DNA from: Pseudomonadota bacterium
Lineage (GTDB): Bacteria > Bdellovibrionota_F > JAHFAK01 > JBDREC01
DNA: 64,000 nt
Assembly: GCA_043820105.1 (NCBI GenBank)
Contig: JBDREC010000076.1
Coordinates: forward strand, 1 to 64,000
Direction of reading: 5' to 3'
In this document: positions 763 to 33,330 of the stretch, in pieces
How positions within the stretch are numbered: the first letter of the stretch is position 1
How the letters are laid out: every line of letters starts with the position of its first letter
The notes under the pieces: model-generated
Database searches by the model: none
Told to the model about the DNA's origin: nothing
What the model saw: only the letters and a program-made list of their open reading frames with translations
Position numbers and translations under genes: made by a program

Positions 763-2190
763 CTAAGATTTAATAAAATTTACAACTTTTTCAACTATTT
801 CCTGAGATGATTTTACGCAATCATTGATTCCAACACCACGCAAAACATTTCCAGTCAAAAATATTCCATGATTTCGGCTAGCTACTGTTTCCAAGTTATC
901 CACAAGCACTTCATGGCCCACTAAATATTGAGGTATAGCCTTTTCATGCTTGAAGATCTTTACAAACTCAGGCTTGCAAGCCTTTAAACCCATTGTTTTT
1001 TCCAAAGCTTCTAAGCTAATTTGAATAAGCTCATCATCAGGTTTTAAGGCAAGTTCATTTGCTCTGGCACCACCTAACATATTGCGAATATAGACTTTTT
1101 CAGCTTTAACTCTGTGTTTGAAAATCGATGAAGTCCACAATGTTCCAAGCATCTTCATTTTTTCTTTAGATGGTATCAAATATCCAAATCCATTTAGTGG
1201 GTGTGGAAAACTTTTTTTATCAAAACCCATTCCAACTATTGAAAGGGAAGCGTATGGAATCTTAGTAAAATCTTCAAAAGATTCATCTAAATATTTTAAT
1301 GCATCAAATGCAGCATAACCTGGGATTGCTGAGATTATAATATCAGCTTCGAAACTACCTCCGTCTTGAAAGGTGATTGTATAGTTGCTGCTTTCTGTTT
1401 GCTGCTTGCTGGTGATTTTCATTGCTCTGGCACCGAGCTTAGGCTTAATTTCTAGTTTATTTTCGAGGGCTTGTATAAGTTCTTCAAGACCACCTTTAAA
1501 TGAAACTAGTCTTCCTCCAGGGCCAGACGGACTTGATTGCATCTCCTTATCAAGCCCCTCTTTCTTTCTTTCCTTTGCTTTTTTCGAAGCTAACTTCATC
1601 ATAGCTTTGATGAGTGAACCATATTCATATTCGAGTTCATAAATTCTAGGAAAAGAAGATTTTAATGACATTGTCTCAGGATTTCCAGCAAAAACTCCTG
1701 AAACCATTGGATCAATTAATTTTTCATATAATTCTTTTCCTAACCTCCGTACTGCAAATTCTTTTAAGCTTTCATCGTTTTCAAAATGATATTTTTTAAC
1801 AAATGGTTCCCAGGCAACTCTGGCTTTTGCAAGAGGTGATAATAATGAACAGCTTAAGAACTGTGGAGCTGATTTTGGAAGTTTATGAAGCTTGCCTTTT
1901 GAATAAACAAATCGCTCTCTAGATTCATCATTTGATGATAATATATTTTCATAAATCCCTAAATCTTTACATAAATCAATTGTGTAAGGCTTTGAATTCA
2001 AAAAGCCATTTGTTCCATATTCACAAAGATATCCTTCCTCCGTCTTAAAGCTTTTGATTTTTCCACCAAGTCTATTATCAGATTCAAAAACATGGATTTG
2101 TGCTTTTATTTCGTCGTTTTTTAGTCTTTCTTGTAATAAAAAGGCTGTGGATAAACCAGAAATTCCACCACCTAGAACTGCTATTTTCAT
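763..2190 (-). CDS. hemY: Protoporphyrinogen/coproporphyrinogen oxidase (HemY family, FAD-dependent)
   Basis: N-terminal GGGISGL Rossmann motif, RLGGKI, AIPQY..GH, GVGINDC; heme operon context. Confidence 0.93.
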   Translation of the reverse strand: MKIAVLGGGISGLSTAFLLQERLKNDEIKAQIHVFESDNRLGGKIKSFKTEEGYLCEYGTNGFLNSKPYTIDLCKDLGIYENILSSNDESRERFVYSKGKLHKLPKSAPQFLSCSLLSPLAKARVAWEPFVKKYHFENDESLKEFAVRRLGKELYEKLIDPMVSGVFAGNPETMSLKSSFPRIYELEYEYGSLIKAMMKLASKKAKERKKEGLDKEMQSSPSGPGGRLVSFKGGLEELIQALENKLEIKPKLGARAMKITSKQQTESSNYTITFQDGGSFEADIIISAIPGYAAFDALKYLDESFEDFTKIPYASLSIVGMGFDKKSFPHPLNGFGYLIPSKEKMKMLGTLWTSSIFKHRVKAEKVYIRNMLGGARANELALKPDDELIQISLEALEKTMGLKACKPEFVKIFKHEKAIPQYLVGHEVLVDNLETVASRNHGIFLTGNVLRGVGINDCVKSSQEIVEKVVNFIKS

Positions 2191-3272
2191 TTTCTATTTT
2201 TCCTCTCTAGTGGGTTGAGTAATTTTGAATTTTGAATCTTGAATTTTGAATTAATTCTCCACCTCCGTACTGCATTCTTCCTGCATTCTTCTTCTCTGTT
2301 TTCCTTTTTTTGTTTACTTTTTCCTTCAATTTTTTCAATCACCAACTCACATAAAGCCTCAATAAACATCATTGAGTCATTTAAAGACTCAACACGAGCA
2401 AAATTCAAAATTCCACTTGCCCTTGCGACTTCTTTAAACTCAATATCAATTTCGTATAAAGTCTCAAAATGATCAGAAACAAAAGAAATTGGAACAACTA
2501 ACATATCCTTAAGGTTTTTATCCCCAAGCTGCTTTATTCTATCCTTTGTACTTGGTCCAACCCATTTTGCTGGTCCTGACCTACTTTGATATGTAAGTTC
2601 TGTATGGTAATCAGAATAATGATTTGATAAACTTCTAAAAGTTTTTTGAGTTTGAGAAATATAAGGATCCCCACCAGTCACAAAAGATTCAGGAATTGAA
2701 TGAGCTGAAAATAAAATAAATGGTTTATTTTTCATCTTAGAAATCGATGCATTTATCTTTTCAACCCAAGAGCTGATAAACAATTGATTATTATAATAAT
2801 TATCTACTATTTTTATTTTATTTGAGTTATCCACATGCTTTTTTAACTCAATTAAACAAGATCCTGTAGTTGTTTTTGAAAACTGTGGAAAAAGAGGCAA
2901 GATTACAACCTTGCCATATTTTTCAAAATCATTACAAACATCTTTGATAAATGGAGCTGAATATCTCATTGCATAAATTACATCTACTTCAATGTTTCTT
3001 TGTAATAATCTTTTTTCCAAAGCTTTAGCCTGACATTTGGTTTGTTCAAGAAGGGGAGATTTTCCACCAATTTTATTATATTTTGGAATAACCTCCCTAG
3101 ACCTTGTTTTTGCTATGAATCGAGCTAGATATTTTTGTAAAAAAGCAGGTCCAAGACGAATAATTTCACGATCAGAAAACAAATTGAACAAAAAAGCCTG
3201 AATCCCTTCAATACTTTCAGGAGCACCAAGATTTAGCAAAAGAACTGCAATTTTTTTATTATCATTTTTCAT
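2187..3272 (-). CDS. hemH: Ferrochelatase
   Basis: LLLNLGAP, GGKSPL, AMRY, FSAHSIP, SFVSDHFETLYEID; repeat-derived C-terminal tail. Confidence 0.95.
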   Translation of the reverse strand: MKNDNKKIAVLLLNLGAPESIEGIQAFLFNLFSDREIIRLGPAFLQKYLARFIAKTRSREVIPKYNKIGGKSPLLEQTKCQAKALEKRLLQRNIEVDVIYAMRYSAPFIKDVCNDFEKYGKVVILPLFPQFSKTTTGSCLIELKKHVDNSNKIKIVDNYYNNQLFISSWVEKINASISKMKNKPFILFSAHSIPESFVTGGDPYISQTQKTFRSLSNHYSDYHTELTYQSRSGPAKWVGPSTKDRIKQLGDKNLKDMLVVPISFVSDHFETLYEIDIEFKEVARASGILNFARVESLNDSMMFIEALCELVIEKIEGKSKQKKENREEECRKNAVRRWRINSKFKIQNSKLLNPLERKNRK

Positions 3273-3277
3273 GAAAA

Positions 3278-4354
3278 TTAATTATCTCTTATTATGTCTA
3301 TTAAATATTTCACTTTATCTGGATCCGTATTTGGCAAAATTCCATGCCCTAAATTAAATATATGACCTTTAGCCATTTTACCTTGCTCTATAATCTTTAA
3401 AACCCTATCTTTAATAATCTCTTCTGAAGCAAATAAAACTGTTGGATCCAAATTCCCTTGAATAACAACATCTTGACTAAGTCCGTCTTGTAATTTCTCA
3501 TTCGCCGTACGCTGTACGCTGTACGCTGTACGCACCGCAAGTTTCTCTAGTGCCAGGCTCAAATCTAGATGCCAGTCTACTCCATAGACATCAGGATTAA
3601 TTTCAGTGAAAGTTTCCAAAAGAGCATAAGAATGATTTGCATAATGAATTCCTGGGACTTTATTTACAGACTTAAATATCTTTTTTGTATATGGCAAAAC
3701 GTATTCTTTGTAATCTTGACTTGTTAAAATTCCTGCCCATGTATCAAAAACCTGAAAAAGATTTATTCCAGAATCGATTTGAGCATTTAGATAGGCTATC
3801 ACAGCTACAGTTAATTTATCCATCAAGCCATGAAAAGCCTGTGGATAACTATACATAAACTCCTTAATTTTAGCAAAATTCTTAGAAGATCCACCTTCAA
3901 GCATATAGGTTGCTAATGTAAATGGAGCTCCAGAAAAACCAATCAAAGCGGTTTCAGCAGGAAGATTTTCTCTTATCAATTCAATAGCTTGCATAACGTA
4001 TTCAAGCTCTTCATTAGGATTTATTTCCCTCAAAAGCTTAAGTCCGTCTTGTGTATTTAGTAGTGGATTTTTAAAGACAGGACCCTTGCCCTCGATAAAT
4101 TCCAAATCCATGCCCATTGCCTCAGGAATCACTAGAATATCTGAAAATAAAATTGAAGCATCAAAGCCAAATCTTCTAATTGGTTGTAATGTGACTTCAC
4201 ATGCAATTTCAGGATTTTTATACATTTCAGTGAAATTGTATTTCTTTCGAATTTCTCTGTATTCTGGCAAATATCTTCCAGCTTGTCTCATTATCCAAAT
4301 CGGAGGTGAATCAAGTTTTTCACCATTTATTGCTTTAATAATTTTATAATCCAT
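3278..4354 (-). CDS. hemE: Uroporphyrinogen decarboxylase
   Basis: PIWIMRQAGRYLPEY, ILFSDIL, QGNLDP, HIFNLGHGI. Confidence 0.96.
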   Translation of the reverse strand: MDYKIIKAINGEKLDSPPIWIMRQAGRYLPEYREIRKKYNFTEMYKNPEIACEVTLQPIRRFGFDASILFSDILVIPEAMGMDLEFIEGKGPVFKNPLLNTQDGLKLLREINPNEELEYVMQAIELIRENLPAETALIGFSGAPFTLATYMLEGGSSKNFAKIKEFMYSYPQAFHGLMDKLTVAVIAYLNAQIDSGINLFQVFDTWAGILTSQDYKEYVLPYTKKIFKSVNKVPGIHYANHSYALLETFTEINPDVYGVDWHLDLSLALEKLAVRTAYSVQRTANEKLQDGLSQDVVIQGNLDPTVLFASEEIIKDRVLKIIEQGKMAKGHIFNLGHGILPNTDPDKVKYLIDIIRDN

Positions 4355-12611: not shown

Positions 12612-13061
<450 letters not shown>

Positions 13062-23304: not shown

Positions 23305-24975
23305 ATGAGAAGCCTGAATAAAGGAATTATAACTTTTATTATATTAATTTTTTATATTGGATCCGTATTTTCTCAAAGTTACTACTCAACAAACAAAGGA
23401 TCTCAAAGCACAAATGAGCATCAAGCAAATGCAAATCCCTCGACATATAGACCAAAAGCATTAGGCTCACAACCATTTTCAATGCAAGACTCAACAAAGT
23501 CAGACTCTGTTTTTGATAATGCTACTGGTTTAGAATATACCCCACTTGAAAAACCCATTGATCCTGATAAATATAAAGTAGGCGTTGGTGATAGACTTGA
23601 GCTTCATCTTTGGGGAAAAACAAATATTAAGGGATTATTAATTGTAGGTCCTGATGGCAAAATTCGTTTGCCCAAAGGTGGTTATGTTATAGCTTGTGGA
23701 GAAACACCCGAATCACATAAAACTTTAAGCCAGATAAATCTCGAAGTAAAAAAAATACTTTCAAAATATTATATTGATGTTAATTTTGAACTTTCGCTAA
23801 ATATGCCAAGAACTTTCTTGGTAAAAGTTGTTGGCGCCATAGTAGATCCGGGCATTTATCAGGCGCTTCCTGTTGAAAGAGCCAGTGAAGTAATATTTAG
23901 AGCAGGTGGCCTGAGCCCAAATGGATCCATGAAATATATTGAACTAAGAAGGAATGGTCATAGTGAAATAATAGATTTAGAAGCTTTTAACTTTGGAGCT
24001 AAAACGGCATATAATCCTTATATTCAGGAAGGTGATATCATCTATGTTCCAATAATGGCAAACGTTGTGTCTTTATATGGGGAAATAAATCGCCCTGGCA
24101 ATTTTGAATTTGAAGGAGAAATGAGACTATCCACAATTGTTGAAAGAGCTGGTGGCACCAGCACAAGACTATCTCACCTAAAACCCATTAAAATATCAAG
24201 ACTCTGGTCAGACAGAAAAGAAAGACAAATTATTGAAATTGATACAGCCTTGTTTTTATCAGGTGACCCTAAATATGATTCCTTTGTAAAAGCCAATGAT
24301 AGAATTATTTTTCCTTCTTCTGAAGCCATCCAAAGAATGGTTGCAGTAAATGGAGCTATTTTAGGAGGCATCAGCTTTGAGGAAAAAGCTTCCGGAAACT
24401 ATGAGGGAAAGCCTGGGGAAGAAAGAGAAGGCCTCTATCCGCTTGATGATGGTGAGACTGTAACAGATATTATTAAAAAAGCGGGAGGCATTACTCCTTA
24501 TGCAGACCTAGAGAATGCTTTTATAGTAAGACGCGAAATACAAGGTGATAATATTGAAGTAAAGACTATAAAAGTAGATTTACATAAGATTTATATTGAA
24601 AAAGATTATACATATGATCCTCTGCTTGAACCAGGAGATATCCTAACAATCCCTTCAAAGAGGAGTCACATCTATGTAACGGGAGAGGTAAAGAGCCCAA
24701 AACCTATTCCTTATAGACAACAACTTACAGCTATGGAGTATATTGGGGCTGCAGGAGGACTCACAAACAGAGCAAAGTTTGGTGCTGCCGTTGTAATTAA
24801 AGTAGATGGAACAGAAATCGACCTGGATGATAATCCAGTCTTAGAACCTGGAGATGTAATCTTTATTCCGGAACAATTATTTAAATTCTGGCAAGACTGG
24901 ATAGCAATTACAACTTCTCTGACCTCCCTGGCTCTGTCAATTTTAGCTATTACAAATTCGATTTCTTCTAATTAA
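23305..24975 (+). CDS. SLBB-domain polysaccharide export protein (Wza/KpsD-like)
   Basis: Signal peptide; YKVGVGDRL poly_export motif; repeated V.GE...PG...AGG / L.PGD.I.IP SLBB units. Confidence 0.82.
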   Translation: MRSLNKGIITFIILIFYIGSVFSQSYYSTNKGSQSTNEHQANANPSTYRPKALGSQPFSMQDSTKSDSVFDNATGLEYTPLEKPIDPDKYKVGVGDRLELHLWGKTNIKGLLIVGPDGKIRLPKGGYVIACGETPESHKTLSQINLEVKKILSKYYIDVNFELSLNMPRTFLVKVVGAIVDPGIYQALPVERASEVIFRAGGLSPNGSMKYIELRRNGHSEIIDLEAFNFGAKTAYNPYIQEGDIIYVPIMANVVSLYGEINRPGNFEFEGEMRLSTIVERAGGTSTRLSHLKPIKISRLWSDRKERQIIEIDTALFLSGDPKYDSFVKANDRIIFPSSEAIQRMVAVNGAILGGISFEEKASGNYEGKPGEEREGLYPLDDGETVTDIIKKAGGITPYADLENAFIVRREIQGDNIEVKTIKVDLHKIYIEKDYTYDPLLEPGDILTIPSKRSHIYVTGEVKSPKPIPYRQQLTAMEYIGAAGGLTNRAKFGAAVVIKVDGTEIDLDDNPVLEPGDVIFIPEQLFKFWQDWIAITTSLTSLALSILAITNSISSN

Positions 24976-26647
24976 AATCTGGATCAATTTTCCTTATCTC
25001 CTTTAAAACATAACGACGATTATCTTTAAGTTTATCAATAATAGGAGAATATGTATATTTAGCAATAGCCTCATTTATTAAATAATAAATTTCAATAAGC
25101 TCTTTGAGCTTCTTTTTTGCATCAGTAATTCTTTCACTTGCTAAAAATCTTTTGGCAGCGCTTGTTCTAATATCTTTAGTAATCTTATCATCTAGCTTAA
25201 ACATTATATTTTTTGCGTCACTTTCAAAATCTGTACCAATTAGTAATTCCACTCTATTCCTAACATTAATAAGTTCATCCATATTTTTAAAATTATCAAT
25301 TTTCATGGAAGCTTCTTCAATAAGCTCATAAGCCTCATCACTTGACACTTGCACATCTTTAACGCTTTTTCCCTTTTCTATAATTGATTGCACTTGATTT
25401 TCAAGGGCTTTTGATGGCCAAATATATGCATATTTATCTGCAAGATCTTTAGCTTTGCTAATTCTATGTTTTATATCCTTAATCGAATTAAGTTCTTTTA
25501 TTTCATTATTAATTTCATTTGTTAATAATGGATTAATCTTTTCTAATATGCTTTTTGCTTTTTGTGAATAAGCACTACTTGGATAGTCGTCAATAATTTC
25601 ATAACAAGCAAGTGCTGAAGACAACAAATCCTTTCCTGAAATAGCTGCAATTTCAGCCTCAGACAGCTTCATAGCAGCCTTATAATCGCTGATATCACTT
25701 TCACTGATTTGGGTGTTTTTATGAAGCTTGTCAATTATATCATTTGTAATTTTTATATTATAATTCTGCAGCTTCATCATATCTTTGAAGTTTGTATTGA
25801 TCTTTCTTCTATCGTCGCTTTCTAAAGAAAGGTAAACAAGGTAATAATAAATTAGTACAGAGTTCAAATTATAGTTGGTAGAATACGTTGAATTTTTTAA
25901 CCACTTATATGCTTCTTCAGAACTTCCATTTTTAGAAAGTGAAATCCCGTACATAATAATAATATCAGAAGGTAAAATTGGTAAAAGTTCATTTATTTTT
26001 TTGTCATTAAAATATCTTATAAATTCTTGATAATTATTAGTACCATATATTGATCTTAGCTTAAATAAATCAGCTTGCATTTTCTCAGAAAAGGCAAAAT
26101 AGTCATCTTCAACAATCATCTTCCTAGATACAGTCGCGCTATCTTTGTTTTCAATATTTAATCTAAATTTTTTGGCTAGTTCTACAAAAGAATCGTCATA
26201 AATTACTTTTGAAGATTGAGTCAGTAGAGATAATAAAGTTCGAGGTTCTAAGTAATTTTTTCGAAGACTGCCTTCAAGCAATTCACTGATCTTAGTTAAA
26301 TGATCTATCCGATTTTGCAAATCTTTTACAAGCAAACCAATCTCTTGAAAATCAGAGCGTGAATAAGCAACATCACTAACTAGCATTTCTTCTAAAACTA
26401 AATATTCTTTTTTTAATTTGCCAATTTGTTCCTCAAGCATGGCTTTATTAATTAAAAACTCTTTTGTATATCCTAAAGAAAAAGCCTCTTTTTGTTTAGA
26501 TTTTTTTTCTTCGCGAACCTCTGGCTTTGTAACCACTGGAGGCTTATAAAAGCACGAAGTAAAAAATAGTATAAAAATAAGATTAATAGGTAGAAATAAA
26601 TTCTTTATAAATCGGCGTAAATAGCCTTTTAGGTTTTTTTTCATCAT
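24968..26647 (-). CDS. Helical/TPR-like lipoprotein
   Basis: Basic N-terminus, hydrophobic stretch and FFTSC lipobox; YPSSAY TPR-like motif; the upstream part of the listed ORF is PBP overlap. Confidence 0.6.
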   Translation of the reverse strand: MMKKNLKGYLRRFIKNLFLPINLIFILFFTSCFYKPPVVTKPEVREEKKSKQKEAFSLGYTKEFLINKAMLEEQIGKLKKEYLVLEEMLVSDVAYSRSDFQEIGLLVKDLQNRIDHLTKISELLEGSLRKNYLEPRTLLSLLTQSSKVIYDDSFVELAKKFRLNIENKDSATVSRKMIVEDDYFAFSEKMQADLFKLRSIYGTNNYQEFIRYFNDKKINELLPILPSDIIIMYGISLSKNGSSEEAYKWLKNSTYSTNYNLNSVLIYYYLVYLSLESDDRRKINTNFKDMMKLQNYNIKITNDIIDKLHKNTQISESDISDYKAAMKLSEAEIAAISGKDLLSSALACYEIIDDYPSSAYSQKAKSILEKINPLLTNEINNEIKELNSIKDIKHRISKAKDLADKYAYIWPSKALENQVQSIIEKGKSVKDVQVSSDEAYELIEEASMKIDNFKNMDELINVRNRVELLIGTDFESDAKNIMFKLDDKITKDIRTSAAKRFLASERITDAKKKLKELIEIYYLINEAIAKYTYSPIIDKLKDNRRYVLKEIRKIDPDFN

Positions 26648-29600
26648 TATCACAATCGCCATAATATTCCTCATATACATTAGCCTCAGTTTTTGGGTCC
26701 ATAAATTGACCATTAATAATATTGACAGGCAACTTACAACGATCAGAAGACAATGGCAAGAATTCAATTTCTCGTGCCCCCTCAAAAGCATAATCATAAG
26801 GATTAATATTTTTTGAATAATTATCTGATGAAACTACATAATTTGCAAAATTTCCCCATATAGGCATTGCTCCTGTGGCGCCACTTATTTTAAGTTTTTT
26901 ATTTGCCATTCTTTTATTGTTATCATAACCCATATAAGAAGCAACAACCAGGGTTTCATTGGCATTTAAACTGTTTTTTGATTTTAAATAGGGGATAAAC
27001 CCTGCAAAGGTAGAATTAATATAATTATTAGTTGTTCCTGTTTTTCCAAAAAATGGAACACTTATAAATAGGCTGCTATCTGCATCATCCAGGGAAAGTT
27101 TAATTTTATTTTGCCTATCAAGCCTTATTCCTGTGCCATATTTAACAACATTTCCAAGGATTTGGTTTATTAGGTCCACCAAACGATAATCAACAACATT
27201 TACTGATCTTTCTTGATTTCTATATATTACATTACCATTCCTATCTTCAATTTTACTAATTAAAGTTAATGACCAATCAATATCATCAGCAGTAAAATAA
27301 CGAACCCCTCTTGTCATCGTTTGATATGCTAAAGCAATTTCATCTAAACTAACTGAGTTAGAACCAAGCGGAAAAGATAAAACTTCATCAAGCCTTGTTT
27401 TAATACCAAGTCTATAAGCAAGATTTACCACATACTTAAGAGCAAGATAAGTTCTAAAATCTTGATGATAATAAAGAGCTTTAAGAGAATAATAATCATC
27501 ATTTATTAAGTCCGCGAAGAGGGTTTTTAAATTTTCGTCTATTGTAAAAATGCTTGAAAGTTTTACTCTGCCATCAATATAGATATCCTCAACATTATAT
27601 TCGTCTAAAACCTGCTGTATGGAAATTGGATAGGAAGTCACAATATTTAAAACCTTAGTTTCTTTGCGAAGTTTATCATAAAAATCTGTTTTAAATATAA
27701 TGTTTCTTTGCAAGTCATCATCAACAGCAATCTCAAGCTTTAATTGCTTATTATTTGATTTTTCAGATTTATAATCTTGAATTGCCTTTACAATTTCATT
27801 TGCAGCGTTTTTATATCTTATATAATTATCTAAAAGGAAGGGTATTTTTTCACTAGATTTATTATATTTTTCTTCATATTTTTTTTGCTTTAACTTTCCT
27901 CTAACAGATAATTTTTTTAAAGCATCTAGTTCTGCTAAAATATTTTCAATTTCTTCATTAAAACCTGTGCCATAAGCTAAAGACTTTATATATCTAGCCT
28001 CTTTTTCCCTGCCATCAAACACATATTCAGGATATAATTCTCTAATGGCTATATTAAATAGCTTTGGAGTGAATTTTTCTTTAGAAATTAAAATTCCATG
28101 TTTATCTCTTAGTCTATTAAAATATTCTCGATCAGATTCGGTATTATTTTTTGCCAGATCTAAAAGTCCACAAAGCTTGATAAATTCGTCAAAGTTTAAG
28201 TAATCTAATAAATTATACAAAAGGTAAACTGTTGCCAAATTTTCAGATTTAACACCAGCCCATGAAATTGAAACCTCATCAGTTTGTGGAGCGTGATCTG
28301 GCTTGGGAATGTAAAATTGATTTTGAAATGGAAAAACCGTGCGAATATTTGGAATCATATCTATATTTGACCACCCAAGTTGAAAGGCAGCTAAGTAAAC
28401 TAAAAGTTTAAAAACAGATCCTGGCTGGCGTTTAGCCATTATAGCGCGGTTGAAATCCTTATTATCGTAGCCTCCAGCTATAGAAACTATTTTATTTCCA
28501 TCTATAGCTATCAATCCACCATCAAGTTTTGTATCCATCCTTAAATTATAAAAAGGAAGTTCGCCCTCAGTGTTATGCCTTGCAAGCGATACAAGTATAT
28601 TGTCACCCTTTTTAAATTTCTTTAGAAAACTTTTGAAATTATGTTCATTAGCACTAACCCAAATGCCATTCTTATTCTCCAAATCACTTTGGGTGAATTC
28701 TAGTAAAGATTCTGGATCAATTAATCCCTGCTCATCATCTAAGTTAAATAGTATAGTCTTTTTATCTTCTTTTTGATCTAGCACATAGTTATTATTTAAA
28801 ACAGTTGCGATTTTTATTTCTGCAAGCCTGGGCTTATAATCTTTTATTGGTTTTTCATAAGAGTTTAGTTTTACTTCAGCCAATTCTAAACCCTTTCTCA
28901 AACTTTCAACAGCAGCTTGTTGTAAATTATAATCAATTGTGGTGAATATTTTTATTCCAGAAGTTGAGATATTTTCAATGCCTGCTTCATTCAAGAAATC
29001 TTTGATTTTATCAGATTCTAATTCCTTAGAAACCATATCAATTAAAATATTGTTTTCATAAGAAAATCTACCAAAATTAAAATCAATCTCTGCCTTTAAA
29101 GCCTCTTCCATTTCTGCTTTTGAAATAGCATTTACTTTATACATATTTCGAATTACATAATTTTTTCTTTCAACGGCTCTAACATAAGCTTTTTTTTTAT
29201 TTTCTTCAGTGGAATAAAAATCAGGATTATATCTATTCGGACCCTTAAAGGCTCCGGCAATAAAGGCTGCTTCAACTAAGGTAAGATCTTTTGCTTCCTT
29301 GGAGAAAAAATATTTAGATGCAATATGCAAACCGCGACCATTACTATTTACAAAGAACTGATTAATAATGAATTCCAGGATTTCATCTTTTGAATAAATA
29401 TGCTCCATCCTTATGGCGTTGATCATCTCCATAATTTTTGGCGTAAAATCTCTTTTACTTCTAAAAGTAATATTCCTTATTGCAAGCTGTGTTAGTGTAC
29501 TTGCACCCTGTACGACTTTTCTTGCTTTAAAATTAACCACAGCAGCTCTAACCATGCCTTTAAAATCAAGGCCAAAATGAGAATAGAAATTTTTATCTTC

Positions 29601-29897
29601 AGATGCAATTAAAGCTTTTTTAAAAACATCCGGTATTTCATCAAATGATAAATACTTTCTGTGGCTTTTACTAAAATATACTCCCATCAAATTATGACCA
29701 TCATTAAAATAAATTGGGCTTTCACTTGAAATTGTGGACATAATATAGCTTCTTTCCAAAACTTCAGGCTTTGCCTTTATTATGAAGATATAATAAGATA
29801 AAATAGATGCTAAAATTAATAAAAACAGAAATATGGAGCCTAAAAGTGATAATCTAATAATCCATTTTTTAAATTTCTTTTTTGTTTGTATTTTCAT
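26583..29897 (-). CDS. Class A penicillin-binding protein (PBP1A-like) with large insertion
   Basis: SEDKNFYSHFG, QGASTLTQ; transpeptidase RQPGSVFK, SEN, GKTGTTN. Confidence 0.9.
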   Translation of the reverse strand: MKIQTKKKFKKWIIRLSLLGSIFLFLLILASILSYYIFIIKAKPEVLERSYIMSTISSESPIYFNDGHNLMGVYFSKSHRKYLSFDEIPDVFKKALIASEDKNFYSHFGLDFKGMVRAAVVNFKARKVVQGASTLTQLAIRNITFRSKRDFTPKIMEMINAIRMEHIYSKDEILEFIINQFFVNSNGRGLHIASKYFFSKEAKDLTLVEAAFIAGAFKGPNRYNPDFYSTEENKKKAYVRAVERKNYVIRNMYKVNAISKAEMEEALKAEIDFNFGRFSYENNILIDMVSKELESDKIKDFLNEAGIENISTSGIKIFTTIDYNLQQAAVESLRKGLELAEVKLNSYEKPIKDYKPRLAEIKIATVLNNNYVLDQKEDKKTILFNLDDEQGLIDPESLLEFTQSDLENKNGIWVSANEHNFKSFLKKFKKGDNILVSLARHNTEGELPFYNLRMDTKLDGGLIAIDGNKIVSIAGGYDNKDFNRAIMAKRQPGSVFKLLVYLAAFQLGWSNIDMIPNIRTVFPFQNQFYIPKPDHAPQTDEVSISWAGVKSENLATVYLLYNLLDYLNFDEFIKLCGLLDLAKNNTESDREYFNRLRDKHGILISKEKFTPKLFNIAIRELYPEYVFDGREKEARYIKSLAYGTGFNEEIENILAELDALKKLSVRGKLKQKKYEEKYNKSSEKIPFLLDNYIRYKNAANEIVKAIQDYKSEKSNNKQLKLEIAVDDDLQRNIIFKTDFYDKLRKETKVLNIVTSYPISIQQVLDEYNVEDIYIDGRVKLSSIFTIDENLKTLFADLINDDYYSLKALYYHQDFRTYLALKYVVNLAYRLGIKTRLDEVLSFPLGSNSVSLDEIALAYQTMTRGVRYFTADDIDWSLTLISKIEDRNGNVIYRNQERSVNVVDYRLVDLINQILGNVVKYGTGIRLDRQNKIKLSLDDADSSLFISVPFFGKTGTTNNYINSTFAGFIPYLKSKNSLNANETLVVASYMGYDNNKRMANKKLKISGATGAMPIWGNFANYVVSSDNYSKNINPYDYAFEGAREIEFLPLSSDRCKLPVNIINGQFMDPKTEANVYEEYYGDCDNDEKKPKRLFTPIYKEFISTY

Positions 29898-29988
29898 TTT
29901 GGAGATTTTTCAATTTTTTTAATGTGGGTATTAATATTAAGGTATGATTAAAATGTAAAGAAATAAGAGAGTAAGGGAACAAGGGAAC

Positions 29989-30026
29989 AAAAAAAGCTGA
30001 CTGGCGAATTTGCCAATCAGCTTTTT
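29989..30026 (-). terminator. Intrinsic terminator (potentially bidirectional) ending the large ncRNA
   Basis: Minus strand AAAAAGCTGATTGGC-AAATTC-GCCAGTCAGCTTTTTT. Confidence 0.8.
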
Positions 30027-31166
30027 ATTCTTTACAAATTATAAAGGCAGGAAAAAATAACTTAAGTAGCATTTCCTCTTCAAAGATCATCCTTTATTAA
30101 GCTATTTAATTTTTTCCTTTGTAGTTTGACCCACTAAGGTAATTTTAAATCCTCTCACAGAGTTATAAGGCTCTTTAGAGTTTTATATGTAAACAAAGTA
30201 TATAATTTTCTGGTTAATTATCACCCTATTTGGTGTTTTAACACCTGTTAGGGTTTCCCTTGTTTACCGTCTGCTAGATGTTTAACCACCTAACTATCCT
30301 CTTATGAGCTTTTACTCTCTCTCAGAGTGTTTGCCTAACAAAGTCTCAAAGCCTCGCAGCTTCTTTGACCTTTCATCGAGGTTTGCGGCCTTATAACGTT
30401 TTCAGTATTTTAAGGACTAACTTACAAGCAAGTTTACCTGGCTTACTTTTTGTAGCTTCCATAGGTTTTGACTAACCTTTCGAAGTTTAATCTTTCCTTA
30501 AAAGACCGCTTAGTGTTATCGCAACTAAGCTACGCTTATAGGCTTTACCTTTCAAAGCTTTGCCAATTAATAAGTCAAGTTAGTTCATCACTAACTTATG
30601 CCCTTACGCTGTTATTCTCAATATTTGCAAAAAACTAGTTGCCCGGTTTTTTGAATATCAATGCATCAACCATAAGGCTTTAAACCGATTAACAAGCTTC
30701 ATACCTCAATTAGCTTCTGGCTAATTAAAACATGATTGCTTTCTTAGGCTTTTCCTCTTTAAGGTTTTCGAAATAAGTCCTTATAGATTAGCCTGTTAAG
30801 CTTATCCTCCTCTTGTGGTCTTTTCAACAAGCTATATCGCTATAACTTCCTAACATGTAACCTTTAGAGTTTTACATAACTCATTTCTAGTTAGCTTATT
30901 TTGTATTTCTACAAAATAAAACTAACACCCTTTTTGAGGTTTTTGGCCTCCTAAAACCTAACATGCTCAAATATGCTAAAGTCCAAAGATCATTTTTTCT
31001 CCAGGTCGTATTAATAAGTATTGCTACTTACCATTGACTGCCTTTAAGGACTTTACTTAGCAGCTTTCTGACACATTTTATTTTGATAGTCCTAAAAGAA
31101 CAATCAAAACCAGTCAGGCTGTTTAGGGTTGGCTCACTCTACCATTGGCTATTTTTCCCTGCCTTG
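29990..31166 (-). ncRNA. Putative large (~1.15 kb) structured non-coding RNA
   Basis: No ORF of 60 aa or more in six frames; promoter upstream and terminator downstream; 18-bp 5'/3' closing helix; many GNRA-capped hairpins with G-U pairs only on the minus strand. Confidence 0.75.
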
Positions 31167-31172
31167 TAAGAA

Positions 31173-31203
31173 AGCTTATAAAGAAGCAAAACTCTTTTGT
31201 CAA
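31173..31203 (-). promoter_or_regulatory. Sigma70 promoter of the large ncRNA
   Basis: TTGACA (31203-31198), 17 nt, TATAAG (or TAAGCT at 19 nt). Confidence 0.65.
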
Positions 31204-31554
31204 TAATTATTTCAAAATAATTTCACATTTTTGTCACATCTTAATAATTCCAAGAACTTATCATATAATATTTTTTTAACAAATTCGTGACTTTAAAATC
31301 ATATTGCAAATTCATAATCTCAATTCCTCCACACACATCGCAGCAAACGACAGTATGTCAAGCAACATCACACACAACACAGGCCTACAACACCAGAAAC
31401 ACGGACAACCAGATCAATCATTACCTGATTCTCTGCATCTACAACATATTACAAAAAAACACAAAACCATATATGTTTTAATTTTTTTTTCAGATAAGCA
31501 ATACTAAAAAAACAGGCCGTGCCCTGTACCCTGTACGCTGTACGCTGTACGCAA

Positions 31555-32208
31555 CTAAGATCTAACTAACTTTTTATAAGAAAACCACCAATCATAGCTA
31601 TTAGCCCCAAGGATTGTACCCTTAACAGAATCTTCATCAGATGGTGGATGGAGCAAAACGCCCTCTCCAACCAATTCATTAATCGGCCAATTAGCAGGCA
31701 TATCAACCTTATTAGCATCTACCACTGTCAGAGCCTTAACAGCTCTATAGATTTCTTCAACATTTCTGCCTAATTCTTTAGGATAATGAAAGATAGCCCT
31801 AACCTTTGCTATTGGGTCAATAATAATTACTGATCTTGTTGCTATTTTATTATCTGCTTCTGTTATAAAACCCAAATCCCTGGACACATCAGCAAAGGGA
31901 TCAGAAAGAATTGGAATTGTGATATCTGTTTTTAATTTATCCCTCATCCACCCTGTCCATTTAAGGATTGATGTCATCTTGCTACTACAAACACCTAGCA
32001 AAGAACATCGAATAGCATTAAATTCTGGCAGTCTCTTTTGAAAAGAATAAAGTTCCGTAGTGCAAACAGGATCAAATTCAGAAATAAAGTTTACGACAAC
32101 TCCCCACTTAGCATGGAATACATTAGGAAGTTGAACCATGCCAGTTGTAGTTTCAGACCTTATGCCTGGAAATCTTGATCCAATTTTTACAATCGTTTTT
32201 TCGTCCAT
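31555..32208 (-). CDS. Peroxiredoxin (Prx6/archaeal-type-like) with atypical active site
   Basis: PVCTTEL, ATRSVIIIDP, YPKELGRNVEEI, PANWP, DWWF. Confidence 0.8.
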   Translation of the reverse strand: MDEKTIVKIGSRFPGIRSETTTGMVQLPNVFHAKWGVVVNFISEFDPVCTTELYSFQKRLPEFNAIRCSLLGVCSSKMTSILKWTGWMRDKLKTDITIPILSDPFADVSRDLGFITEADNKIATRSVIIIDPIAKVRAIFHYPKELGRNVEEIYRAVKALTVVDANKVDMPANWPINELVGEGVLLHPPSDEDSVKGTILGANSYDWWFSYKKLVRS

Positions 32209-32223
32209 AATTTTTATCCTTTG

Positions 32224-33330
32224 TTATTTTTCACTTTTTGTTAAGTATTTGTTTAAAAAGGAAACCTCATCAATCTGGGCTATAAACTCTGAGACAGAAA
32301 GCCCCTCTTCAGGATAATTCCATATTATCTTAATATAATCTGGCAGAATATCCAGATTATTCTTCACTCTATTTAAAGCCATTTCAGCGTCTTCAGAAGT
32401 AACATCCCTAAAAAAAACTAAAAAAGTATCATCAGCAATTTCAATAAGCTGATCTCTAGGATATCTAATAATGTTCTTTAGGACTTTAAAACGGCTTGGC
32501 AAGTTATCATTATTTTCAAGAAGATTCCTAGACCAAGAAATTTCAAGAATAGAAAAACACATGTGTAAACGTGATGCTCTTTCTATTTCAGAATTTAATA
32601 TATCCTTTATAAAGTTTTTATCCAAATGATTTGGAATTTCAAAAATAAAGCTAAAGCCTATGTCATCTTTAATATCAACAATACCACCATGAGTCCTTAC
32701 AAGCTTATAAGCGTTATAGAAATTAAGTCCCATCTCACCCTTTGTAACATTAGGAGAAGTAAATTTTTCAAGTAGTTTTTCCTTTAAGCTTTTATCTATA
32801 TCAATATCTAGACTTGATATAGCAAAAATCCATGATTCTTTTTTAATGTCTTCAGTACAATTTATTTTTATTTTTGCACTATCATTAACAGTATATATAA
32901 AAGTATCAAGAACTTTTGAAAATATATCAGTTAATATTGTAAGGTCTGCAAAGAGTAAGCCAGCTGTTTTTTGCACATTAATATCAATTTCAATATTTTT
33001 ATTTTTGATCTGATTTTTGAATTTATCCAGGGCTCTATTAATAAGAAAATGTATATCAATACTTTCTTTTCTTGGCAAACTTGCTTGAGTTTTTAAATAA
33101 TCAGAATCAAAAACAGAATCAATTGCGCTTGTTAATATATCAATGCTTGCTCTTGCAATTTTAAGATATCTTTCAAAAACATCCTTATCAGTTGGATTAA
33201 TTGCACCATCTACAAGGCCATCAACAAATGATTTCAATTTTGTTACAGGAGTTCTAAACTGGTGAGATACCTGAGCAATAAATTCATCCTTCAATTTTTC
33301 AAATTCTTCATTTGCTTTTTGATCAGGCAT
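32224..33330 (-). CDS. HisKA + degenerate HATPase + degenerate GGDEF-like protein
   Basis: VSHQFRTPV H-box; eroded N/G boxes; EIERASR...FS GGDEF-like N-terminus without GG(D/E)EF. Confidence 0.65.
   Translation of the reverse strand: MPDQKANEEFEKLKDEFIAQVSHQFRTPVTKLKSFVDGLVDGAINPTDKDVFERYLKIARASIDILTSAIDSVFDSDYLKTQASLPRKESIDIHFLINRALDKFKNQIKNKNIEIDINVQKTAGLLFADLTILTDIFSKVLDTFIYTVNDSAKIKINCTEDIKKESWIFAISSLDIDIDKSLKEKLLEKFTSPNVTKGEMGLNFYNAYKLVRTHGGIVDIKDDIGFSFIFEIPNHLDKNFIKDILNSEIERASRLHMCFSILEISWSRNLLENNDNLPSRFKVLKNIIRYPRDQLIEIADDTFLVFFRDVTSEDAEMALNRVKNNLDILPDYIKIIWNYPEEGLSVSEFIAQIDEVSFLNKYLTKSEK

Follow-up and report, generated by a model that had tools for sequence, protein, structure and literature searches.

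The window, that is, the whole 64,000-nt stretch of DNA that was analysed, holds on its minus strand, from position 31165 to position 30044, a stand-alone RNA gene of ~1.12 kb with its own promoter and terminator. A transcript ending at the U-run of the terminator is predicted to be ~1,177 nt long, and the sizes found among the paralogous genes range over ~0.95–1.15 kb. The features of the locus are as follows:

31204 to 31293, minus strand: upstream control region, kept in all four copies of the gene (alignment of the four upstream regions)
31175 to 31203, minus strand: sigma-70-type promoter, with TTGACA (31203–31198), 17 nt, and TATAAG (31180–31175)
30044 to 31165, minus strand: structured RNA, ~1,122 nt when measured between the outermost bases of helix P1, with ends by prediction
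31148 to 31165, minus strand: 5′ strand of P1, pairing over 18 bp with 30044–30061 (−27.5 kcal/mol, duplexfold), with two non-Watson-Crick pairs, both G-U
30945 to 31134, minus strand: 5′ arm D0 (RNAalifold, three-sequence alignment), with a GCAA/GUAA hairpin that is of the GNRA type in all three AT-rich homologues
30754 to 30939, minus strand: arm D1, closed by CCUC-AAA-AAGG and CCUU-AAA-GAGG
30547 to 30749, minus strand: arm D2, closed by GCCU-AAG-AAAG and CUUU-GAA-AGGU
30388 to 30543, minus strand: arm D3, the module with the strongest conservation, closed by GCCU-AUA-AGCG and CGUU-AUA-AGGC
30075 to 30381, minus strand: arm D4, an extended stem in which 3×3 loops are nested
30170 to 30309, minus strand: inner module of D4, homologous to D3 (D3 model, 38.1–39.1 bits; E 7.6e-8 and 4e-8)
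30044 to 30061, minus strand: 3′ strand of P1, pairing with 31148–31165
29989 to 30026, minus strand: intrinsic terminator, an 11-bp G+C-rich hairpin with an A-U extension (−24.6 kcal/mol), followed by U7

Much of this had been anticipated in a first-pass annotation of the same DNA, and its description holds: the promoter letters are exactly those that it gave, the terminator and the 18-bp end-to-end helix are real, and all five of the GNRA hairpins that it listed are present, with loops GCAA (31024–31021), GAAA (~30910–30907), GCGA (30840–30837), GCAA (30642–30639), and GCGA (30357–30354). Its statement that no ORF of 60 aa or more occurs was likewise borne out, the longest ORF overlapping positions 29990–31203 being 56 aa. 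Every ORF of at least 30 aa in this interval lies on the plus (antisense) strand, and with genetic code 4 the sense strand is still without an ORF of at least 40 aa. A consensus scan for promoters and terminators listed neither element; its rule demands a −10 hexamer ending in T, and the hexamer here ends in G.

Copies, control regions, and homologues

The genome holds four copies of the gene, namely that of the window (contig C76), one at C4:54487–55708, and a near-identical pair broken at contig ends, with 5′ parts on C97 and C28 and 3′ parts on C87 and C15. The two members of the pair are 98.7% identical over 231 nt at the 3′ end and ~98–99% identical over the 5′ part, as against 85% over ~300 nt upstream, and their similarity stops directly past the terminator. 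Four dispersed copies, two of which are so much more alike in the RNA than upstream, with a likeness that ends where the transcript does, could be taken as the trace of a mobile or selfish element RNA, such as an ORF-less group II-like intron, a retroelement template, or a transposon guide RNA, copied via transposition. This explanation is nevertheless very improbable. No transposase, reverse transcriptase, integrase, or phage gene was found at any locus, there is no group II match, no host gene is interrupted, and the copies bring their own promoter and terminator. Moreover, a blastn search of 50,697 phage records and a search of a plasmid collection gave no match, and viral contigs gave none with either 20-mer or 21-mer patterns, in agreement, as are the ordinary neighbouring genes, with the chromosomal, non-phage setting that had been proposed. 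The remaining paralogues are 57–70% identical and yet keep the fold, indicating long-term selection on the RNA and not recent spread.

The upstream control region contains TGTGAC (31238–31233) and, after a 5-nt gap, TGTGAAA (31227–31221), with two more TGTGA-like words farther upstream. The pattern TGTGAC-N4-6-TGTGAAA-N12-30-TTGACA has four matches in the 3.8-Mb genome, which are exactly the four RNA genes. The TTGACA-17-TATAAG promoter precedes all four genome copies and is identical on C4, C97, and C28, and the terminators of the C4, C87, and C15 copies, and of both copies in the more distant genome G145 (see below), consist of other hairpin sequences followed by U-runs. The gene is thus its own transcription unit, with a dedicated promoter region exclusive to the four copies and an intrinsic terminator at each copy.

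Homologues were found on one metagenome contig (L006), in a 56%-GC genome of the same class (G003; covariance model, 76.6 bits, E 2.6e-14), and at two loci of a 66%-GC genome from another phylum (G145; 45.1 and 43.8 bits), the two G145 copies being 75% identical to one another over 1,038 nt. D3 is the segment that finds both G003 and G145, and an nhmmer three-sequence profile misses G003, which the covariance model finds. The model search, with a 156-nt model, covered ~155 genomes; among the ~147 genomes of other families, G145 was the sole match of the D3 covariance model. Nothing matched in the two smaller genomes that belong to the same order, even at E up to 1, and the RNA is therefore not essential to the lineage. 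Seven sequences, two of them incomplete, are known in all; their sources are one metagenome contig and three genomes. The four paralogues, the repeated modules described below, and the occurrence in a second phylum go beyond the first-pass annotation.

An exact 20-mer scan of genome contigs gave 0 matches. Matches of a 21-mer pattern (with one N) in L007 and L008 were put down to chance, nhmmer giving them no support, and a 38-nt BLAST match in G023 (E 8.4e-4; 40 other genomes searched) was also taken as chance, that search yielding nothing else useful.

Predicted fold and its conservation

The modelled fold consists of the 5′/3′ closing helix and five arms around a central A-rich junction. 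Its minimum free energy (MFE) is −335.0 kcal/mol, compared with −248.4 ± 8.2 in 40 dinucleotide shuffles (z = −10.6); for the antisense strand, z = −4.75. The strand is also indicated by the G-U pairs, which make up 42 of the 327 pairs of the consensus fold in the window copy and would be A-C if read from the opposite strand. A closing helix can be drawn as well in single-sequence folds of C4, C97/C87, L006, G003, and G145, and the assessment of P1 and of the arm-closing loops across the two phyla is based on such folds.

The arms have a common closure, composed of 4 bp, a symmetric 3×3 loop (outer A-A or G-G), and 4–5 bp, in which both strands read YYYY-RNR-RRRR. Eight conserved two-fold-symmetric 3×3 purine loops are present. 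Purine-flanked 3×3 loops number six in the native MFE structure, as opposed to 0.87 (maximum 4) across 30 shuffles, and the same element occurs five times in the MFE structure of G003 and five times in that of G145. An apparent A-A to G-G exchange was also noted in the 3×3 loops.

At least two modules of ~150 nt are homologous to each other, namely D3 and the inner module of D4, as is the module at the D2 position in G003, and the RNA has thus grown through internal duplication. The C4 counterpart of the inner D4 module scores 31.5–36.2 bits with the D3 model. Within D3, a block of 51 nt differs by one base between the two full-length paralogues. Loop–loop complementarity extending over 5 nt or more was not found to be conserved among the three AT-rich sequences, so that nothing points directly to pseudoknots or kissing loops.

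Covariation was assessed by counts of double changes against shuffled and slid controls. With RNAalifold on three sequences, double changes were seen in 126 of the 327 predicted pairs. When the MFE structure of the window copy was placed on the alignment, 108 of 380 pairs showed compensatory double changes, versus 48.9 ± 5.4 in shuffles (0 of 500 reaching the native count) and 22–38 when slid, with 83.3% versus 73.2% of cells paired. For D3 across six sequences, double changes were counted in 32 of 47 pairs and 94.9% of cells were paired, compared with 18.6 ± 2.6 pairs in shuffles and 7–9 when slid, these figures being favoured by the fitting of the D3 alignments to the model's own structure. 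Covariation between the phyla is that of D3; MAFFT aligned G003 poorly to the AT-rich copies. The fold is maintained by selection over a range of 34% to 66% G+C and across two phyla.

Transcript accumulation and the downstream gene

The first-pass annotation had made its case depend on covarying homologues and on a transcript. Besides the homologues, with their strong compensatory change relative to controls, a transcript was also encountered, in assembled contigs from which strand, ends, and true level are not readable. Three groundwater metatranscriptome runs (X1–X3) from two studies contain 70–77% of the words of the stretch; the parts uncovered in the DNA run X4 and the small-share runs X5–X13 were left out of account. 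Contigs with 0 differences from the window span positions 30089–31139, and thus only the RNA, at a word depth in X1 of 1,740–4,030, and the flanks (29000–30052 and 31223–32500) have depth 0, save for one unlike contig at 0.6–1.1. At least 11 distinct X1 contigs span the conserved D3 block, where the summed word depth is ~86,000, mostly from other family members. The RNA accumulates far above the neighbouring mRNAs in environmental RNA.

The neighbouring genes are ordinary chromosomal ones, encoding PBP1a, a peroxiredoxin, transporters, and metabolic enzymes. The PBP1a gene (29897–26583) is co-oriented with the RNA gene and starts ~90 nt downstream of the terminator, and the C87 copy also precedes a co-oriented gene; this arrangement would suit a cis-acting leader or long 5′ UTR, giant and riboswitch-like, controlling PBP1a via the terminator. 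Such a role is largely refuted by the remaining evidence. The RNA contigs end within the RNA and the PBP1a side is at zero depth, the next annotated-looking gene is convergent at C15, G003, and G145-C80, and the four copies have a common promoter region but no common downstream gene; indeed, the neighbours are unrelated at all seven loci, without any gene in common. The copies in the window and in G003 each have an AhpC/TSA-type gene as a neighbour, which was treated as coincidence.

Possible role and relation to known RNAs

A cmscan search with all 4227 Rfam 15 families found nothing at gathering score in the region, and terminator-like noise only at E up to 10. GOLLD (RF02032) was absent from the region at E up to 10 and from the genome at E up to 1. 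Neither ROOL (RF03087) nor OLE (RF01071) was detected in the region by cmscan, which was the main test; genome searches were negative too, but 14 control genomes were also blank for ROOL and the control genomes likewise for OLE. No intron model was among the region matches at E up to 10, group-II-D1D4-1 (RF01998) was absent genome-wide at E up to 1, and the gene, with its own promoter and terminator, interrupts no host gene and contains no internal ORF. The earlier view that hallmarks of rRNA, RNase P, and introns are lacking agrees with these results. A divergent replacement of rRNA, RNase P RNA, or 6S RNA is not indicated, since the canonical genes are present elsewhere in the genome (RNase P type A, 241 bits; 6S, 65 bits; 23S, 2,801 bits) and the region matches no such model. 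In the literature on such large RNAs no description was found, motif-catalogue supplements (e.g., PMC5737381) being outside that search. Rfam 15 should include catalogue motifs such as those of PMC5737381, and none matched.

With more than 500 nt, no ORF, covarying helices, and conserved blocks, the RNA has the features of the large "ornate" bacterial non-coding RNAs, a loose descriptive group and not a homologous family. Of the two possibilities left by the first-pass annotation, a new class is supported, and a large member of GOLLD, ROOL, or OLE is not. Overall, the gene at 31165–30044 and its three paralogues probably encode a non-coding RNA that had not been catalogued before and would rank among the largest such bacterial RNAs known. 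To our knowledge, few bacterial RNAs are as large and as complex, the examples being the rRNAs, group II introns, GOLLD, ROOL, and OLE; each of these has proved rewarding to study, and the new RNA is longer than the last three. It is well supported by compensatory changes over 34–66% G+C, by four paralogues, by a second phylum, and by very high environmental RNA levels, and its design, in which modules are duplicated internally and one symmetric loop recurs, is unusual. At ~360 kDa, it offers structural biology a natural multi-domain target, for which several diverged sequences are ready for in-vitro transcription. It is also a major unexplained groundwater transcript, from phyla with almost no genomes (four and one in the set searched).

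With respect to function, a ribozyme, whose catalytic core would be held in place by the large, conserved, multi-domain fold (for example, in the almost invariant internal loops of D3) and would act in trans or on the RNA itself, has in its favour the size, the complexity, and the long near-invariant loop and junction stretches, which are arguments used for other large RNAs; 13 of the 63 unpaired positions of D3 are invariant across three lineages, and the predicted domains radiate from a helix-closed central junction. It is unlikely all the same, as no Rfam ribozyme model is similar, the contigs carry no sign of processing and no joint in the window copy (the joints listed being those of diverged relatives, not cuts), and repeated modules with eight symmetric loops suggest multivalent binding or packing over a single active site.

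Those repeated, evenly built loops could equally serve as binding sites for an abundant dimeric protein, the RNA then being a sponge or titrator comparable to CsrB/RsmZ for CsrA or 6S RNA for RNA polymerase. Diverged paralogues under a shared promoter architecture are typical of sponge RNA families, and here several diverged paralogues with one dedicated promoter architecture are combined with very high abundance. We rate this possibility a shade above the ribozyme, and still as improbable: the consensus fold has 18 hairpin loops, and GGA occurs in none of them in any of the three sequences, so the RNA is not of the CsrA-binding type; ordinary 6S RNA is present in the genome; no candidate protein-partner gene is linked at any of the seven loci; and covarying long-range helices, GNRA loops, and conserved junctions exceed the needs of known sponges. 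The sponge overlaps with the protein-binding branch of the preferred explanation.

Our best guess is that the RNA functions as a stable trans-acting RNA or ribonucleoprotein particle, and not as an antisense regulator, leader, or mobile element; the step from the predicted fold to a stable, compact particle acting in trans is a tentative one, to which we give slightly less than an even chance. GNRA loops, A-rich linkers, and the repeated symmetric loops might provide tertiary, and possibly quaternary, RNA–RNA contacts, or alternatively the loops might be repeated sites for a dimeric protein. In its fullest form, the proposal, put forward with comparable reserve, is that the RNA founds the largest ornate non-ribosomal, non-intron class of bacterial RNA, a ~1.1-kb "covalent oligomer" of four to five copies of an ancestral ~150-nt module with two-fold-symmetric purine–purine closing loops, which would be packed round a central junction as an RNA-only or RNA–protein particle and expressed from a dedicated regulon-like promoter, to levels that few other transcripts of these rare, uncultured groundwater phyla would reach.

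In 23S rRNA, a 5′/3′ helix closes a wheel of domains. The new RNA resembles 23S rRNA and group II introns in having several domains off a central junction, a likeness of general architecture only, and differs from them in the absence of a model match, an interrupted gene, and an intron-encoded protein. OLE is a single-copy RNA of Bacillota extremophiles that is linked to oap genes; the new RNA is similarly ornate, chromosomal, and very abundant, but it is present in four copies, is not linked to a protein gene, and belongs to other phyla. PMC12054373 and PMC12265935 describe OLE as a very abundant chromosomal RNA of ~600 nt that works as a ribonucleoprotein particle, and PMC12286853 describes an OLE dimer in vitro. 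ROOL, another large ornate RNA, forms an RNA-only octamer via A-minor contacts and kissing loops, without a known protein partner in the account given in PMC12286853. Its model, at 574 positions, is about half the size of the new RNA, and it differs further in its phage or prophage context and its multiple pseudoknots, none of which could be shown in the new RNA. GOLLD, many members of which exceed 800 nt, forms an RNA-only 14-mer cage and is encoded in phages and prophages near tRNA islands, according to the same account (PMC12286853). The new RNA is like GOLLD in being very large, ornate, and ORF-free, with many covarying helices and high expression in some conditions. Unlike GOLLD, to which it has no sequence or structure match, it is flanked by housekeeping genes at its seven loci and has no counterpart in the phage collections; it also exceeds GOLLD in length, occurs in multiple copies, and consists of repeated modules within a 5′/3′ closing helix. 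On the particle view, the RNA would be a covalently linked pseudo-oligomer of one module, and the particles that OLE, ROOL, and GOLLD form would be its counterparts.

A multi-copy transcription unit and its expression

The RNA is an independently transcribed, abundant and multi-copy molecule, with an elaborate fold under selection in two phyla. In the minus-strand reading of 29800–31400, TTGACA (31203–31198), 17 nt and TATAAG (31180–31175) are followed by a purine-rich stretch dense in hairpins, and then by a G+C-rich hairpin with U7 (30026–29989) folding at −24.6 kcal/mol, exactly the promoter and terminator proposed by the first-pass annotation. A simple consensus scan missed both, the promoter because the −10 rule of the scan demands a final T, the base here being G. 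The further claims of that annotation, that the region lacks an ORF of 60 aa or more and that its ends pair, were also borne out: the longest overlapping ORF is 56 aa, all ORFs of at least 30 aa lie on the plus strand, reading TGA as Trp yields no additional sense-strand ORF over the RNA region, and the ends pair over 18 bp (−27.5 kcal/mol). Compared with 40 dinucleotide-shuffled sequences, which average −248.4 ± 8.2 kcal/mol, the full 1,122-nt RNA has a minimum free energy (MFE) of −335.0 kcal/mol, a z of −10.6; for the antisense strand, z is −4.75.

The source genome (G000; 3.8 Mb, 113 contigs) contains four copies, found by BLAST and then nhmmer, two of them being near-identical and both interrupted by contig ends.

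RNA copies in G000 and neighbouring genes
C76, 31165–30044, minus strand: full-length window copy; between 1-Cys peroxiredoxin (31555–32208) and PBP1a
C4, 54487–55708: full-length copy, identity 70% in BLAST and 67.3% across the alignment; MFS transporter and sodium:solute symporter
C97, contig start: 5′ part of a broken copy; pilin-like gene and prismane protein
C28, contig start: 5′ part of a broken copy; acyl-CoA synthetase-like gene
C87, contig start: 3′ part of a broken copy; aminotransferase and PRA isomerase
C15, contig start: 3′ part of a broken copy; unknowns

Similarity within the broken pair begins about 300 nt upstream (85%), rises to about 98–99% within the RNA and ends right after the terminator. 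About 130 nt upstream are common to all four copies and comprise TGTGAC-N5-TGTGAAA, about 20 nt and TTGACA-17-TATAAG; across the genome this arrangement is seen four times, at exactly the four RNA genes. The terminators differ in sequence, and all are G+C-rich hairpins followed by U-runs.

In a word index, the RNA stretch occurred in metatranscriptomes of groundwater, namely three runs belonging to two studies (shares 0.70–0.77), and in a likely DNA run with a share of 0.37. The runs were compared over 29000–32500, counting contigs with 0 differences, which reveal no strand, ends or true level.

RNA contigs in the metatranscriptome runs
X1: 30089–30196, 30167–30849, 30821–30880 and 30851–31039; word depth 1,740–4,030
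X2 (a small run, 15 million letters): 30135–30971; depth 30
X3: 30355–31139; depth 20

The portions of PBP1a and of the peroxiredoxin gene that fall in this interval have depth 0 in X2 and X3 and are covered in X1 by a single unlike contig at depth 0.6–1.1, while the DNA run has a depth of about 3 over the RNA. With RNA depth far above that of the DNA run and flanks near zero, DNA carry-over cannot account for the signal. Summed depth reaches up to 26,828 per bin in the conserved block of the D3 arm. At position 30472, 11 X1 contigs carry the base of the C4-type copies (depth 79,202 of 86,040), and loose contig ends spell the C4 sequence, indicating that other family members are present and jointly more abundant.

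Architecture, homologues and covariation

The closing helix P1 (31165–31148 with 30061–30044) bounds a junction with five radiating arms, separated by linkers of 3–7 nt, mainly A.

Arms of the consensus fold
31134–30945, minus strand: D0
30939–30754, minus strand: D1
30749–30547, minus strand: D2
30543–30388, minus strand: D3, the best-conserved arm
30381–30075, minus strand: D4

The consensus fold has 18 hairpins, with 4, 2 and 6 GNRA loops in the three sequences and GNRA in all three at two positions; the window copy has an extra GAAA loop masked by the consensus register. An element of about 4 bp, a 3×3 loop (4×3 in one case) and about 4–5 bp recurs at eight positions, each strand being pyrimidine-rich, then R-N-R, then purine-rich (CCUC-AAA-AAGG / CCUU-AAA-GAGG; GCCU-AUA-AGCG / CGUU-AUA-AGGC); by inspection, not statistics, the outer loop positions oppose A-A or G-G in most listed examples. 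The native MFE structure contains 6 purine-flanked 3×3 loops; 30 shuffles averaged 0.87 and never exceeded 4.

Homologues, whose recovery the first-pass annotation had called for, were found by pattern and covariance-model searches. Searching with a pattern of 22 nt taken from the block of highest conservation retrieved a 1,110-nt metagenome contig (L006), homologous along its whole length at 57% identity. A 156-position D3 covariance model, searched in the window's phylum (n = 4 genomes), matched G003, a genome of the same class (56% GC; 76.6 bits, E 2.6e-14), and nothing in two same-order genomes. A second model including G003, run on 151 genomes that mostly represent one family of the domain each, added one genome with two matches, G145 (66% GC), the sole representative of its phylum in the set; a third, including the G145 loci, found no further genome in the same sample. 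The G145 loci are 75% identical to each other over 1,038 nt, are ORF-independent, and both finish in terminator hairpins and U-runs. Single-sequence MFE structures of G003 and G145 contain five purine-flanked loops each, G+C-rich (e.g., CCCC-AGG-AGCG / CGCU-GAA-GGGG).

Conservation between the G145 copies extends upstream of the RNA for about 200 nt (L018:880–1085 and its L019 equivalent; columns 1–200 of their alignment A8), where the motifs differ from the TGTGA repeats in G000. In both genomes the family appears to carry a control region of its own. Just 3′ of one copy lies a long palindrome (L018:2096–2223). Either strand of it matches several microRNA precursor models from plants and animals at 30–41 bits, below cut-offs, and it was rejected as a microRNA in favour of a large hairpin or repeat.

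The D3 model also matches inner D4 of the window copy (30309–30170; 38.1–39.1 bits, E 7.6e-8 and 4e-8) and of the C4 copy (31.5–36.2 bits), and in G003 a module immediately 5′ of D3 (35.3 bits, E 3.2e-7), with fainter echoes in the remaining arms. The RNA has therefore expanded through duplication of a module some 150 nt long.

Covariation, named beforehand as decisive for the RNA, is present in the three-sequence full-length alignment and in D3 across six sequences. RNAalifold on three AT-rich full-length sequences gave 327 pairs, 126 of which have both sides changed with the pair kept in at least one sequence; 42 of the 327 are G-U in the window copy, which fixes the minus strand as claimed. 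To keep the test free of circularity, the 380-pair MFE fold of the window copy by itself was placed on the alignment: 83.3% of cells were paired and 108 pairs had double changes, versus 73.2 ± 0.8% and 48.9 ± 5.4 in column shuffles (0 of 500 reaching either native value) and 22–38 double-change pairs when 3′ partners were slid by 1–3 columns. In D3, whose six sequences come from three genomes plus the metagenome contig, 94.9% of cells were paired and 32 of 47 pairs had double changes (26 of 47 with four sequences; shuffles 18.6 ± 2.6, slid controls 7–9), these alignments being fitted to the model and thus biased in its favour.

Genomic surroundings

The loci have varied neighbours, including a divergent redoxin (L012:3–761) in G003 and acyl-CoA dehydrogenase and amine oxidase in G145. 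A leader or a mobile element is very improbable: several downstream genes are convergent, counting out leader function, and no mobility or phage gene recurs among the loci. Phage, plasmid and viral collections likewise held no match, in agreement with the non-phage context first proposed, and no RNA-binding gene recurs beside the copies across the examined loci.

The window peroxiredoxin has its own terminator-like site (31527–31512). An AhpC/TSA-family gene adjoins the RNA both in the window (upstream, same strand) and in G003, probably by coincidence, since it is absent from the other five loci. Downstream, a 609-aa ORF without a Pfam match (24968–26797, minus strand) overlaps the 1,104-aa PBP1a ORF (26583–29897, minus strand) by about 215 nt; its true start is probably later than listed.

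Relation to known RNAs and possible role

When the whole window was searched with cmscan against the 4227 families of Rfam 15, only two matches emerged, neither at the RNA gene.

Rfam matches in the window
12612–12966, plus strand: full-length tmRNA, 211.8 bits
23080–23152, minus strand: tRNA, 66.3 bits

A permissive scan of the RNA region gave weak matches only, all well under gathering scores and most overlapping the terminator hairpin, and nothing relevant in Rfam matched the homologous loci of other genomes. Models for GOLLD (RF02032) and group-II-D1D4-1 (RF01998) had no genome-wide match at E up to 1, nor did those for ROOL (RF03087) and OLE (RF01071), to which control genomes were equally silent. 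Ordinary RNase P RNA, 6S RNA and 23S rRNA are present elsewhere in G000; the 23S rRNA match (G000:C90:97911–101635, outside the window) spans 3,725 nt versus 2,925 model positions, indicating some 800 additional nt in the gene, which may be intervening sequences. In the portions covered, searches of the literature on ornate or otherwise large RNAs of bacteria, on new classes of RNA and on RNAs in groundwater metatranscriptomes returned no description of the RNA, and an index of other DNA stretches contained nothing similar to it. We place the RNA in a class of its own among the loosely grouped large ornate RNAs, the second of the two alternatives originally offered.

We tentatively favour a particle or scaffold, in which the RNA would act in trans as a stable folded particle, and its repeated modules and two-fold-symmetric loops would either form packing contacts or bind a dimeric protein at recurrent sites. 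A pure protein sponge is unlikely, and its CsrA type is excluded because hairpin loops lack GGA; a ribozyme appears a little less probable again. In the particle or scaffold reading, packing contacts may be intramolecular, or intermolecular as in OLE, ROOL and GOLLD, for which Kretsch et al. showed RNA-only dimers and cages whose stability comes from A-minor contacts, kissing loops and an A-A helix (PMC12286853). At 1,122 nt, the RNA is larger than all three, whose models have 616, 574 and 416 positions, respectively, with GOLLD members themselves exceeding 800 nt (PMC12286853).
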